Source: Dehalococcoidia bacterium (lineage in GTDB: Bacteria; Chloroflexota; Dehalococcoidia; Plut-88900). Taken from it: 64,000 nucleotides of DNA. The notes under the pieces are model-generated. The model worked only from the letters and a program-made list of their open reading frames with translations. It did no database searches and was not told the origin of the DNA. The stretch is from positions 480,001 to 544,000 of the forward strand of contig CBDBLV010000005.1 of the NCBI GenBank assembly GCA_965207225.1. The letters run 5' to 3'. Positions 46,669 to 50,552 of the stretch are shown here, one piece after another (position 1 is the first letter of the stretch; each line of letters begins with the position of its first letter). A program made the translations under genes and the position numbers.

Positions 46669-47376
46669 TTATGTCTGCGATTTGTTAAGAAGTTCGGGGT
46701 CTCGCACAGTCCTGAATGTCAGTGACAAACGACGTTTCCGACCTCTCCGCCCACCAGGAGTAAGCTCGCTCTTACGAGGAGCGATCCCATGCTGCCAAAC
46801 ATGACGCGCATCTTTGGTCAAAAATGTGCACGACCCTTTTGGAAGCAGTGCTGGTGATTTGTCCTTCCAGTTCTCTGAAAAGTCCATCTCCCAGTCGTCC
46901 AATAGGGAAATCATGCATACAGTGCTGCCAAACCCTGGATGGTCAATATGTGTGGCTATCCCCTGCCCCGGCTCGTATTCATTCACAATGACTTGCTCCG
47001 GCACCCGATCAAATAGGCCAGTTTCGTCATACAGCCTTCTCGAGAGCGCGGCAAGCCACGTGGGTAACGGGCCTACACGCATGTCCGAGGTTATGGCTTT
47101 TGCCTTGTAGTCGTATAACCAACCGTAGTGTTGTACCCGACGCCGTAAATCCTCTCGCCACATATCTTCGGCAGCATCCACCTGCTTCACACATACGGCC
47201 TGTTCTTCAGGCGTCAGGAAACCCTCCCAAATTCTGAGTCCCGGGACGAGAGCTACATGCTGTAAACCCGTAAGACCGCTCACCTCACGATTGATGTGGC
47301 GCCCTGCTATAAGGATGTCAGGATCCATCTCTAGTAAGGGCAACTGGTTGCTCATGCCAAAGCCTCCTATTTTCAT
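46669..47376 (-). CDS. AlkB-like 2OG-Fe(II) dioxygenase
   Basis: RRVQHYGWLYDY, VNEYEPGQGIATHID, WQHGI, RLSLTFR. Confidence 0.9.
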   Translation of the reverse strand: MKIGGFGMSNQLPLLEMDPDILIAGRHINREVSGLTGLQHVALVPGLRIWEGFLTPEEQAVCVKQVDAAEDMWREDLRRRVQHYGWLYDYKAKAITSDMRVGPLPTWLAALSRRLYDETGLFDRVPEQVIVNEYEPGQGIATHIDHPGFGSTVCMISLLDDWEMDFSENWKDKSPALLPKGSCTFLTKDARHVWQHGIAPRKSELTPGGRRGRKRRLSLTFRTVRDPELLNKSQT

Positions 47377-48140
47377 CCTAGGTGCATCAAAGCAATTTTA
47401 GCACGCTTAGAGTCGTTTATTGGGGTTGTCGCTACTTCTACGTCTTCCAGTTCTATCTTTGCAATCTGCAAACTCTCTCGCAAAAGATCCCACCCCCTCT
47501 GGAAATCCATTGACCAATTCTTGGCGTCAACTGCCACTACAGTGCAATTGGACTTGATGTCCATCATTTTGCTGGTATGTATGATGATTTGCGTGTAGGC
47601 ACGAATGGCGTCGGAATAGTTGGACTGTGCTAGTACATGGCCAAATGTAACTATGTAATCCGACCCTTCCGGGCGATGTCGTCGAGTTGCACGCCACAGA
47701 GATTGGAGGTCGTAACAATAGTGCAAATCCGGGTAATCGAGTATGACCTTACTCAGGCGCCTCTTGATATCTGTGGCTAGGCGAATCACCTCGGGATTAT
47801 GATCGAATCCGTACATTTCCAAATTGTTAACTCCCGTGCCAGCCTCTTTGGCCCAATCCACTAATGCCCAAGAGAATTCGCCGGCGCCACAGCCAACGTC
47901 AATGTGCACATTGTGTCTGCTGCGTATTTTCAGTTGACGTAAAACCTCAGAATAGCGGCGATAACGGTAGTGTGGATGGCCATCAATACCTTCTCCGACG
48001 AAGGAGTCTGTATACTGCACCACCTCCCTGAAGCAAGCGTCTTTCGGCAATACGTGTGAGCGCATTTGAGAGGAGCGAGATATGCAAAGCTCTTTCATAA
48101 TCTCTCGTATCACGCCTTGATAGTGATCCTTAACTGACAC
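47373..48140 (-). CDS. Divergent class I SAM-dependent methyltransferase-like protein
   Basis: HIDVGCGAG (motif I), MYGFD (motif II); ATGA coupling to the AlkB gene. Confidence 0.65.
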   Translation of the reverse strand: MSVKDHYQGVIREIMKELCISRSSQMRSHVLPKDACFREVVQYTDSFVGEGIDGHPHYRYRRYSEVLRQLKIRSRHNVHIDVGCGAGEFSWALVDWAKEAGTGVNNLEMYGFDHNPEVIRLATDIKRRLSKVILDYPDLHYCYDLQSLWRATRRHRPEGSDYIVTFGHVLAQSNYSDAIRAYTQIIIHTSKMMDIKSNCTVVAVDAKNWSMDFQRGWDLLRESLQIAKIELEDVEVATTPINDSKRAKIALMHLG

Positions 48141-48322
48141 GTTTTCAAAACCTCCGGGTCCCTGTGCCTGACATGAGTAACTGTAGCTCTATAGCTCACT
48201 GGCCAGCAGTCATTTTATCAAGGCTATTCTAGCTCGGATTAAGTGGATGCTCTCTTAATCCGAGGGTGGCCCACCCCCGATACCCGTCACCCAACTCCCC
48301 CAAAACCCGTGCCAAAAACCCC

Positions 48323-48350
48323 TTGACTTCTATTACACCCGTGCTACACT
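48323..48350 (+). promoter_or_regulatory. Sigma70-type promoter with no clear downstream CDS
   Basis: TTGACT-N16-TACACT with extended -10 TG; A-tract upstream. Confidence 0.6.
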
Positions 48351-48356
48351 GTTTCG

Positions 48357-48845
48357 CAGTTCGAACTGATATTCAAAAATCCAAGGAGGAACCAAAAATC
48401 CAGGGAAGCCCTGAGACCCGACCCGAGAACTCAACCCCCCGGCCCACCCCAACGGCCCTCGCGCAGGCCCGAGGCACAAGCTGGGGACGTAATCCCCTCA
48501 ACACGGGTCCCGTGTCCCCTTCCCTGACCATCCAGGCGATGGAAGGTCCACAACATTAACCGGCACGGCCCTCATATAGGAGCCCTGCCGAAAAACCTCG
48601 GGCTATTACGCCCTTGGAAAAATCTCCCCCGTCGTTCCCTTCGGAGATACCCGTTAACCCAGCGACGGCAGCGAGAAAACACCCACCCACCCCTCCGAGT
48701 GGGTCGGGAAAACTGAAAAACTGGTGGCAGAGACGCCCTCAGGCGAGAACCCCTCGCTTGTCTGCCACGTGACACAGGAACACGGGGCTGAACCAGGCTG
48801 GCCTCCCGCCCCCTGAAACTGAGTCCCGGACCTTCCATCGCCGAC
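48357..48845 (+). ncRNA. Candidate large structured non-coding RNA (family not recognised)
   Basis: Perfect 15-bp long-range helix 48535-48549/48828-48842 and 8-bp helix 48401-48408/48519-48526, each enclosing several nested hairpins with A-rich linkers; upstream promoter. Confidence 0.6.
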
Positions 48846-48911
48846 CCCCTCCAAAACCCAACAGAAAAGAATGCAAACCCAAACCCCAAAACCGCATAAC
48901 TCCTCCCTCTT

Positions 48912-49032
48912 CCCTAGTATTGAACTAGAGGCAGAGGCTGGCGCTTCAGCGCCAGCCTCTGCCTCTGTTCTTCTCTCCCCCTCTCCCTTAAGGGCCCTAA
49001 GGGAGAGGGGGATCAAGGGGGAGAGGGTTCCC
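48912..49032 (+). repeat. Repeat A copy 3
   Basis: Perfect 18-bp stem 48927-48944/48949-48966, followed by the conserved second hairpin. Confidence 0.92.
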
Positions 49033-49198
49033 TTCCCGCCCCCGCACCACGCGAAATCTCCAGAAATCCCTTCAGGCGTCATTCAATCAAACCAGCTACG
49101 AGTTCAATCAATGTTCAATCAAATTTATCCCCCCCAAACCTCCCTTCCCGTTGGCATCGCCTCAACCCTTTGCCCGGCGCAGAGCGCCCCATTATTCC

Positions 49199-49373
49199 TT
49201 GACTTTTCCCCCTCCCTCTGGTACCTTTCCAACCGATGTGAATCCCCTGAAAGCGCACCCGTGCTTCAAGGGATTTTTTACTGTAGGCGGCAGTCCAACC
49301 ACATGGCGGACAGGGCCTGCCGCCGACAAAAACCTGACGGTTCACCACTGACGGTGGGGAAGGCTGGCGTAAC
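49199..49373 (+). promoter_or_regulatory. Promoter and structured 5' leader of the fbp operon
   Basis: TTGACT-N17-TACCTT with TG; hairpins 49241-49275 (followed by a T-run) and 49286-49324. Confidence 0.55.
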
Positions 49374-50552
49374 ATGAAACTGACCCTTTCAGTCATAAAG
49401 GCGGACGTGGGCTCCATCGGCGGGCACACTAAGCCCTCGGAGCGCATGATGGAAGCAGTCCGCTCCGACGTCCGACAGGCCAAGAGCAAGGGCCTCATCA
49501 TCGATGGATTCGTCTCCCACACGGGAGACGATATCGCGATACTCATGTCCCACACCCGTGGCCCTGACGACACCGATGTCCACCAGTTCGCCTGGGACAG
49601 CTTTATCGGTGCCACCGGCATCGCCCAGGACACCGGCCTATACGGCGCAGGCCAGGATCTCCTCGTCGACGCCCCATCCAGCAACGTCCGGGGTGCTGGC
49701 CCCGCCGTCGCCGAGCTTGAGTTTGAGCACGACCCCGTCAAGACCAACAAGGTCCGCCCCGCCGAGTCCTTCTGCGTCTTCGCCGCCGACAAGTGCGGCC
49801 CCGGTGCCTACAACCTCCCCATCTTCCTCGCCTTCGCCGACCCCATGTACTGCGCGGGCCTCATGCTCCCCAAGATGATCCAGGGCTTCAGGTTCCGCAT
49901 CATCGACATGGATAACGTCGGCGGTGACAGCATCATCGAGCTCAACGCCCCCGAGGACTACTACAAGATCGCCATCCTCCTCCGTGACAACGAGCGCTTC
50001 GCCATTGAGTCCATATATTCCAGGACCTTCGACGAGCCCGCCGTCGCCATTTCCGCCCAGCGACTCCACAACATCGCCGGAACATACACCGGCAAGGACG
50101 ACCCCGTGGCCATCGTCCGCAACCAGGGCGTATTCCCCGCCCCCGAGGAGATCCTCTCTCCCTTCGGCAAGGCTCACTTTGTCGGCGGCGACGCCCGCGG
50201 CTCCCACGTCATGCCCCTCATGCCCGTCGCCATAAACACCGCCGTCACCGGCATCTACTGTCTCCCCCTCGTCTCCTGCATGGGCTTCTCCATCGACTCC
50301 GACGGCCGCTTCTCCGAGTCCACCATCGACATGTTCGATAACGTTGCTTGGGACTCAGTCCGCTTCCGCGCCCAGGAGAAGGCCGCCGAGATGAGGTCCC
50401 AGGGCTGGTCCGGCGCTGCCATGCTCCCCTACACGGAGCTCGAATACAGCGGCTTCCGCACCGTCGTCGAAGATCTCGTCGGCCGATTCGCCATCCAGAA
50501 CGGCCAGAAGTCCGCCGAAGAGGCCGCGGCAACCATGAAGTCGGTGGGCTAG
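49374..50552 (+). CDS. fbp: Bifunctional fructose-1,6-bisphosphate aldolase/phosphatase (class V FBPase)
   Basis: SVIKADVGSIGGH, GDDI, LYGAGQDLL, YTGKDDPV, RGSH, MRSQG, ELEY. Confidence 0.95.
   Translation: MKLTLSVIKADVGSIGGHTKPSERMMEAVRSDVRQAKSKGLIIDGFVSHTGDDIAILMSHTRGPDDTDVHQFAWDSFIGATGIAQDTGLYGAGQDLLVDAPSSNVRGAGPAVAELEFEHDPVKTNKVRPAESFCVFAADKCGPGAYNLPIFLAFADPMYCAGLMLPKMIQGFRFRIIDMDNVGGDSIIELNAPEDYYKIAILLRDNERFAIESIYSRTFDEPAVAISAQRLHNIAGTYTGKDDPVAIVRNQGVFPAPEEILSPFGKAHFVGGDARGSHVMPLMPVAINTAVTGIYCLPLVSCMGFSIDSDGRFSESTIDMFDNVAWDSVRFRAQEKAAEMRSQGWSGAAMLPYTELEYSGFRTVVEDLVGRFAIQNGQKSAEEAAATMKSVG

Follow-up and report, generated by a model that had tools for sequence, protein, structure and literature searches.

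What is encoded by the half-kilobase at positions 48357 to 48845 of a 64,000-nucleotide stretch of Dehalococcoidia bacterium DNA (GenBank assembly GCA_965207225.1, contig CBDBLV010000005.1, positions 480,001 to 544,000; the whole stretch is called the window here)? An earlier reading made from the letters alone, hereafter the sequence-only reading, proposed an RNA of about 490 nt with its own promoter and two multihelix domains, which might be an undescribed large non-coding RNA (ncRNA), a ribozyme or a non-autonomous RNA element. Our analysis confirms that the stretch is a non-coding, strongly folding element with its own promoter, and it is one of about forty copies per genome, not a unique RNA gene. 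The interpretation that we prefer, and to which we assign a probability of roughly 0.55, is that these copies make up a family, specific to the genus, of modular, structured non-coding RNA repeats of 0.35-0.76 kb, each transcribed on its own.

The window element and its genomic family

The minimum free energy (MFE) of the + strand of 48357-48845 is -190.5 kcal/mol, compared with -153.3 +/- 6.5 kcal/mol for dinucleotide shuffles (z -5.71; none of the 100 shuffles reached the energy of the native strand), while the - strand gives a z of only -2.31. The strong structure that had been proposed is thus borne out, and the + strand MFE fold recovers both closing helices, P1 and P2, and the multibranch domain 2. 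All the helices listed by the sequence-only reading were found in place when the sequence was checked, although several have competitors. Its three small domain-1 hairpins (CCTCG/CGAGG, GGGGA/TCCCC and ACACGG/CCGTGT) are there as sequences, but the MFE, the centroid and the alignment fold favour the longer-range pairings GGCC/GGCC, CCCCGGC/GCUGGGG and GACCCG/CGGGUC. In domain 2 the multibranch arrangement is reproduced, but the GGGGC/GCCCC arm competes with GGGGCU/AGUCCC.

The promoter-like TTGACT-N16-TACACT at 48323-48350 is present as described and is the sole promoter-like site within 47900-49600, a region for which shuffles give 0.5. The open reading frames (ORFs) around the element are short and scattered over both strands. 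The sequence-only reading had seen no signature of a known family and had suggested a comparison with Rfam, which we made with version 15; this includes RNase P, transfer-messenger RNA, signal recognition particle RNA, 6S RNA, group I/II introns, OLE, GOLLD, ROOL, HEARO, raiA, riboswitches and T-box. No family matched at gathering thresholds in the entire window, and a search of 48100-49400 at E<=10 placed nothing in 48357-48845; the matches at that permissive threshold are hairpin look-alikes (miRNA precursors etc.) on the palindromic repeats at 48865-49051, far under gathering scores. No evidence for catalysis by the element emerged.

BLAST against the element's own genome (4.03 Mb, five contigs) matches the region many times, with stepped coverage along the query: the outer domain-1 parts, both P2 strands and the tail have ~32-36 copies, the type-A domain 2 of the window copy has 14, its promoter module (one of three types in the family) has ~12, and the palindromic repeats behind the element give more than 100 hits on both strands. 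Chaining of anchors yielded 37 complete elements, 343-759 nt long from box to tail, besides an additional copy overlooked by the tail anchor. A motif-based harvest over nine genomes collected 132 distinct copies, 40 from this genome and 92 from its relatives. One copy (L026, C1:66973-70074) is split inside domain 1 by a 2.6-kb insertion whose ORFs read as IstA-like (526 aa) and IstB-like (264 aa), so that the insertion probably belongs to the IS21 family of insertion sequences (IS).

The copies share an invariant order of promoter, AAGGAGGAACCAAAAACCC, P1 with domain 1, a short linker, P2 with domain 2, and the tail; the parts of the window copy are collected in Table 1. The promoter, TTGAC[AT]-N16-18-TAnnnT, was found in 37/37 copies of the own genome and ends ~30-35 nt ahead of the AAGGAGG box, and the three distinct promoter/leader modules combine freely with the domain types. 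Family P1 is AGGGAAG/CTTCCCT; domain 1 falls into length classes from ~70 to ~310 nt, its interior differing between copies by hairpins inserted or lost. Family P2, GGCGATGGA.../...TCCATCGCC, encloses domain 2; every copy has its core GGCGATGGA, with an outer extension that co-varies by type (GGTCC/GGACC vs AGACGC/GCGTCT). Domain 2 itself, 173-546 nt long, falls into no fewer than 20 sequence types; all fold strongly, and some have sub-modules in common. Averaged over 55 nt in the 37 copies, the composition of the tail, which ends ...CCCCACAAC(C/T)GAA(C/T)AA, is C 0.38, G 0.11, A 0.45 and T 0.05. These features alter the earlier picture in several respects: the ~490-nt unit does contain both domains but does not end at 48845, as the conserved tail reaches ~48899; the wheel-like multibranch domain is only one of the interchangeable domain-2 types; and of the three kinds of object offered, the non-autonomous RNA element comes closest, whereas a singular large ncRNA or ribozyme gene does not fit ~40 mosaic paralogues.

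Table 1. Parts of the window copy and its immediate surroundings (window coordinates)
Feature	Position	Strand	Remarks
Promoter module and variable leader	48300..48379	+	-35 TTGACT 48323-28; TG-extended -10 TACACT 48345-50
AAGGAGG box	48383..48389	+	perfect 7-nt complement of 16S rRNA 3' end; without start codon after it
Domain 1, closed by P1 CAGGGAAG 48401-08 / CTTCCCTG 48519-26	48401..48526	+	
P1-P2 linker ACCATCCA	48527..48534	+	most copies: ...CCA ahead of GGCGATGG
P2 5' strand GGCGATGGAAGGTCC	48535..48549	+	15-bp helix with 48828-42
Domain 2 interior, 'type A'	48550..48827	+	about six-arm multibranch, A-rich linkers
P2 3' strand GGACCTTCCATCGCC	48828..48842	+	
Conserved tail, C/A-rich, G-poor, unstructured	48843..48899	+	candidate Rho-loading region; ends ...CCCCA(A/C)AACCG(C/A)ATAA
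Palindromic hairpin repeat, 19-bp stem then TTCTTCTCTC	48926..48967	+	terminator-like; separate, far more abundant repeat family
Second palindromic repeat CTCTCCCCCTCTCCCTTAAGGGCCCTAAGGGAGAGGGGGA...	48971..49017	.	highly repeated in genome
Fructose-1,6-bisphosphatase class V (FBPase_3), downstream, co-oriented	49374..50552	+	PF01950, E 1.8e-140

The box resembles a Shine-Dalgarno (SD) sequence without a gene. The 16S rRNA of this genome ends ...GGATCACCTCCTTTCT, and AAGGAGG is the exact complement of its tail ...CACCUCCUUUCU (...CCUCCUU). It is perfect in 129/132 copies, a set itself selected by a fuzzy match to that motif, and none of the 132 has ATG, GTG or TTG 4-13 nt after it. In the 37 paralogues all three frames are stopped, at copy-specific positions and at about the density expected from composition, and the indels of domain 1 and domain 2 do not preserve frame. 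The absence of a convincing coding sequence, claimed for the window copy, thus extends to its family, and the idea of homologues that keep a reading frame instead of helices finds no support.

Two GC-rich palindromic repeat families, represented at window 48900-49040 and at many other genome places, flank the elements on both sides. Both are terminator- or REP-like, and the second has the core ...CTCCCTTAAGGGCCCTAAGGGAGAG...; they are open in one frame and generate long spurious ORFs, such as that at window 48871-49377. In 11/37 copies a hairpin repeat of the 48926-48967 type follows P2 at no more than 200 nt. Short tandem (C)GTTCAATCAA units recur between elements and downstream genes (window ~49075-49100 and copies E04, E16, E23, E31 and E34). 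Modules of the family also occur outside it. There are ~50 GGCGATGGA...TCCATCGCC pairs genome-wide, 13 of them outside the 37 defined elements and 7 of those 13 with a different 5' part; hairpin modules such as CCCCGAGAAGTCGGGG occur inside domain 1 and also in flanking DNA; and some loops are better conserved than their stems, the loop CCCUCCGA being found on at least nine different stems.

A sister group, which we call type V, joins the P2/domain-2 cassette to a different 5' part, made up of a promoter, AAGGAG, an ATG and 31 conserved starting codons (~MSRTSLISSRRTRALRDRPATDTRLLP.PFP). It is present in all nine genus genomes (loci L242-L271) and has seven loci in this one (C3:167328-167796, C3:255807-256271, C5:1330718-1331186, C5:1737003-1737472, C2:179419-179991, C5:1004964-1005543 and C5:1189888-1190467). 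The frame from the ATG stays open for 190-536 codons in 26/28 copies, all the way across domain 2, P2 and hairpin repeats, in contrast to the frames of the main family, which close at random density; the remaining two frames of type V close after 0-197 codons. Variable sites by codon position number 41/39/37 beyond the N-terminus, with no third-position excess, and 6/5/11 within it. Type V could encode a genuine protein, small or disordered, or else be a translated leader or a repeat purged of stop codons.

RNA-level structure, distribution and turnover

Two other copies with different domain-2 types gave sense z-scores of -3.86 and -6.97 and antisense z-scores of -0.40 and -2.65, and P1 and P2 were recovered in the folds of both. 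An alignment of 36 distinct type-A domain-2 sequences, 76-100% identical (alignment A1), has 93.4% of cells paired and shows frequent GC/GU alternation on the sense strand. The folding excess of the sense strand in three of three copies, together with these GC-to-GU changes, points to RNA, or to one DNA strand, as the molecule that folds. Strand-specific structure is therefore plausible, and modestly proven. With RNAalifold the consensus of 51 domain-1 sequences was poor (24 pairs, two of them compensatory), and the box GGAGG paired with CUUCC in preference to P1; we treat the two as alternative pairings. Two further ideas about the box and its surroundings were set aside. Sequestration of the box by a CUCCUC of domain 1 or a CCUCC in a domain-2 loop would rest on 5-6 bp only, and the loop motif is found in 41/132 copies; for a CsrA sponge, GGA motifs are without obvious enrichment by a rough estimate.

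The family is confined to one genus as far as our searches extend. BLAST found it in 8/8 other genomes of the genus, with roughly 10-40 copies per relative, and in 0/32 genomes of the family and class that belong to other genera. With a covariance model built on the minimal domain 1, matches were obtained in 7/8 genus genomes and in 0/3 from other genera of the family. An exact scan for the 5' motif in one genome per species gave, among the matches listed, only sequences titled as Dehalococcoidia bacterium metagenome-assembled genomes, and the public runs that best hold element DNA carry sponge-metagenome labels. A BLASTN search of the PLSDB plasmids and INPHARED phages with the element gave no match; the exact 5'-motif pattern gave 0 hits in JGI metagenome contigs, a pattern so strict that absence is not implied.

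Placement relative to genes is strongly non-random. As counted on a crude ORF-based gene map, in which some starts are too early (E25 and E35) and at least one 'gene', that after E14, is probably a repeat-derived ORF, 33/36 copies share the orientation of the next downstream gene. Divergent intergenic regions contain 19 copies and same-orientation tandem regions 14, with only four copies facing the 3' end of a gene, and the distance from element to annotated start is often only 37-140 nt. Pfam identifies 29 of the downstream genes, which are functionally unrelated; they include FBPase, NusA, RibF, GlnRS, LeuRS, RNase HII, MoaA, RpoB, GyrB, Def, Lgt and KatG, as well as several amidohydrolases, M24 and S58 peptidases, a CoA-transferase, a luciferase-like oxidoreductase and an IS481-type transposase. 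The genes after E14, E34, E35 and E36 stand outside the Pfam set and were identified by reading their N-termini (E34 precedes rpsO). In the region C4:508470-512337, copy E25 lies upstream of an MmgE/PrpD gene, and the single 16S rRNA gene found follows that gene directly (C4:510741-512337).

Loci chosen by motif often share the downstream gene with the window genome, in a set that is biased towards presence. An unbiased survey that started from the gene found an element upstream of nusA in 4/9, of gyrB in 4/9 (with partial motifs in others), of ribF in 8/9 and of fbp in 2/8 genomes. At shared sites the element of the relative is often of another domain-1 or domain-2 type, with 70-300 nt alignable, whereas the closest own-genome paralogue is 87-93% identical over its full length. 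Mismatched modules at orthologous sites together with near-identical paralogues are the pattern expected from recombination or gene conversion at conserved junctions. We rejected the proposal that domain 2 is a target-specific module, because positional orthologues carry different types. In the course of this survey 1-2 in-frame TAG codons were seen in the nusA matches of four relatives and in the gyrB match of one (L220-L223 and L231, in nusA and gyrB of G002, G003, G004 and G006), which could reflect a match that reads on past a true gene end, sequencing error or recoding.

Upstream of fbp, two relatives (G008, with 100% protein identity, and G007) are homologous to the window only from ~49185 onward, and these candidate empty sites are rearranged up to ~190 nt before the gene; in a third (G005) other genes lie between at this locus. 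No direct repeat that would mark a target-site duplication was seen beside P2 by eye. Two - strand genes upstream of the window element (46669-48140; 235 and 255 aa) have no counterpart at the syntenic place in G005, and the synteny break of G008 at ~49185 lies in repeat-rich spacer; breakpoints of rearrangement seem to fall where repeat mosaics lie.

Proposed mechanism, known systems and rival explanations

In the interpretation that we prefer, each copy would be transcribed from its own near-consensus promoter of the sigma-70 type into an RNA that is made and is stable. By analogy with STAB-SD, the AAGGAGG box, ~30-35 nt from the predicted start, may bind the 16S 3' end or the 30S subunit and so block 5'-to-3' decay by RNase J, an enzyme that this genome encodes (TIGR00649, 561.7 bits vs a cut-off of 400). 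At the other end the untranslated C-rich tail may, by analogy, recruit Rho, which is also encoded, or the flanking hairpin repeat may terminate transcription intrinsically. The copies would be reshuffled by recombination at their conserved junctions, and the orientation bias would reflect selection against antisense transcription into genes. The bias itself suggests that the promoters fire, or that the copies at least emit transcription.

Several observations weigh against this interpretation. The sequence-only reading had proposed a homologue search with covariation analysis; homologues were found, in the genus only, and the covariation support for the structure is modest. Alignment A1, on which the structure tested was taken from the first row, has compensatory change in 7/92 pairs vs 1-5 with slid partners, and a covariation score of 0.061 vs 0.016-0.031 in slid controls; the shuffle control carries a related-sequence caveat. 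Most helices are invariant in the alignments (12/13 pairs of helix 4), which makes the alignments uninformative on them either way. Metatranscriptome coverage, which had also been suggested as a check, gives a weak hint of transcription. In one metatranscriptome (X22), available as contigs, three short contigs of depth 5.6-7.4 lie on the element and others on fbp, and one starts one base ahead of the AAGGAGG box; ends, strand and level are not readable from contigs, and DNA carry-over is possible. No X22 contig lies on the upstream gene at 47300-48298 or on the hairpin repeats at 48965-49297, where uncovered contig parts count as no evidence, although DNA runs pile up there. The STAB-SD and Rho steps are drawn by analogy only. 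A separate promoter-like site stands between tail and gene in 13/33 cases, where shuffles lead one to expect 1.4, which makes a simple 5'-untranslated-region (5' UTR) role unlikely and leaves any cis role undefined. A selfish repeat would equally well explain the module turnover at conserved sites and the presence or absence of elements within the genus. Finally, no enzyme that would mobilise the elements was identified, and the four reverse-transcriptase ORFs of the genome are not adjacent to elements. Those ORFs (C2:158087-158773, C5:1548409-1549095, C5:1553608-1554405 and C5:1671488-1672288; two of them identical at 586 aa, the others of 641 and 652 aa) probably belong to group II introns or other retroelements.

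Among known systems the nearest analogues are BOX-like repeats and reused or mobile promoters. Correia/CREE, ERIC and REP/REPIN elements are interspersed structured repeats of ~100-300 nt, and repeats of the BOX, REPIN or MITE (miniature inverted-repeat transposable element) kind are as a rule no longer than ~300 nt and without their own promoter. The present family shows two of the features that define such repeats, namely dispersed, mostly intergenic copies in the genome and its close relatives, and conserved ends around a variable middle. According to PMC3049150, the BOX elements of Streptococcus pneumoniae are modular, structured, transcribed interspersed repeats; they share with the present family a multicopy intergenic location in a narrow taxon, extensive secondary structure, pairing conserved end modules around a variable middle, transcription with or beside genes, slow new insertion and presence/absence between relatives. 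The elements described here differ from BOX-type repeats in being several-fold larger (350-760 nt), in having a near-consensus promoter and an AAGGAGG box in each copy, in their strong co-orientation with downstream genes and in the lack of a recognised cognate transposase; their middle is a domain of 173-546 nt with at least 20 types, whereas that of BOX is a repeated short boxB unit. The cognate RAYT that accompanies REP/REPIN sequences (Y1 transposase, PF01797) was not found in this genome, which is 92% complete.

The large ornate RNAs OLE, GOLLD, ROOL, HEARO/IscB omega RNA and raiA resemble the family in being ~0.5 kb long and multibranched, with no known protein product, and HEARO is also multicopy. 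In each of them a single architecture is conserved, and an ORF adjoins HEARO, whereas the present elements have an interchangeable domain, 40 copies, their own promoters, a range of a single genus and no Rfam match. Mobile promoters, a concept from PMC3575422, are highly similar promoters upstream of unrelated genes in one genome, described as reused or putatively mobile. The likeness to our family lies in the similar promoters ahead of unrelated genes; the difference is that here the promoter does not drive the gene directly and is followed by 0.35-0.76 kb of structured non-coding sequence, often trailed by a terminator-like hairpin or a second promoter. STAB-SD of the cry3A mRNA of Bacillus thuringiensis, as set out in PMC4113751, is a non-initiating SD sequence near the 5' end, complementary to 16S rRNA, that shields the mRNA from RNase J. 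The AAGGAGG box is likewise an SD-like, non-initiating complement of the 16S 3' end near a predicted 5' end in an organism that encodes RNase J, and it may act in the same way; STAB-SD heads a translated mRNA leader whereas the box heads a putative non-coding RNA.

That the copies are nothing but selfish DNA repeats of the MITE, BOX or REPIN kind, with P2 as terminal inverted repeats around variable cargo, arms accreted from palindromic mini-repeats, folding as a by-product of DNA palindromes and an RNA without a role, is a less probable explanation that nonetheless deserves serious attention. It would account for the P2-type pairs outside the defined elements, including those with a different 5' part, for the unrelated domain-2 types between identical inverted ends of 9-15 bp, for CCCCGAGAAGTCGGGG-like hairpins in domain 1 and flanks alike, and for the presence or absence of elements between species; intergenic regions here are repeat mosaics, and the authors of PMC3049150 reached the same conclusion for BOX, RUP and SPRITE. 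Such a repeat has no need of a near-consensus promoter in every copy or of a box at a fixed distance from it, and the stronger folding of the promoter-defined strand in all three copies, the common GC-to-GU changes, the strongly non-random orientation, the lack of a target-site duplication seen by eye beside P2 and the failure to find a RAYT in a 92% complete genome all speak against it. A structured 5' leader, in which the promoter of the element is that of the gene and the structure and box stabilise or regulate the mRNA, appears unlikely. Co-orientation, short distances to annotated starts and the 20/33 cases without a separate promoter by the scan criteria agree with it, and STAB-SD works in such leaders (PMC4113751). 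Against these stand the promoter-like sites found in the other 13, with several more seen by eye inside mis-called ORF starts, the terminator-like hairpin right after the tail in 11/37 copies (that of the window included), an untranslated C-rich tail that should invite Rho, sister-species orthologues that lack the element or have another module, and downstream genes that share no function. Neither contiguity with the ORF nor a single conserved sensor fold nor related downstream genes, as in leaders of the riboswitch or T-box kind, were found. Given the intervening promoter-like sites and hairpin repeats, the elements have the appearance of units of their own upstream of the gene and not of plain 5' UTRs.

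Trans-acting large ncRNAs, in which a conserved scaffold presents a hypervariable domain to act as ribozyme, ribonucleoprotein scaffold or recognition RNA, seem improbable to us. The scaffold is indeed kept across nine species while domain 2 is replaced wholesale and yet remains strongly folded, certain loops such as CCCUCCGA outlast their stems, and the layout of hairpin repeat, promoter, RNA and hairpin repeat is insulated; on the other hand no Rfam family matched, no conserved unpaired positions resembling a catalytic core were identified, no associated protein gene was found, and a range of a single genus with presence/absence in close relatives is unusual for an essential trans RNA. That a protein-coding or small-peptide gene family with an unusual start or code was missed is very improbable: a perfect SD at a fixed position behind a promoter, and the AAGGAG, ATG and long open frames of type V, are what would suggest it, but the main family has no start codon at the proper distance in any of its 132 copies, its stops occur in all three frames at positions that differ across 37 copies, and its domain indels ignore the frame.

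If the copies are, as we prefer to think, independently transcribed RNA repeats, it is possible that the host uses them as promoter, insulator or supercoiling cassettes upstream of important genes, and a cis effect on the neighbouring gene is slightly ahead of pure parasitism. A more far-reaching idea, with a small chance of being right, is that ~40-50 insulated promoters express a stabilised scaffold (30S-binding box, P1 domain, P2 clamp and C/A tail) on which each copy displays one of dozens of interchangeable structured domains, giving diversified trans-acting recognition, decoy or scaffold RNAs of which type V is the translated variant. Such cassette RNAs, which stand a minority chance of being a truly new class, would have roles in, for example, defence or dealings with the sponge host.

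If transcribed as predicted, the family means that the genus devotes ~20-25 kb and ~40 strong promoters to half-kilobase structured RNAs, and few bacterial ncRNA or repeat families on record would be larger. The family is unusual in combining its own promoter, an SD box without a start codon and a clamp helix that encloses a swappable domain. Short-read assemblies are broken by repeats of this sort, with contigs that end in them, and annotation acquires spurious long ORFs. The elements also offer a natural system for studying the spread and recombination of promoters and structured RNA modules upstream of housekeeping genes (rpoB, nusA, gyrB and aminoacyl-tRNA synthetases), whether 30S binding stabilises non-coding RNA outside the Firmicutes, and how repeat mosaics shape the intergenic regions of uncultured sponge symbionts.

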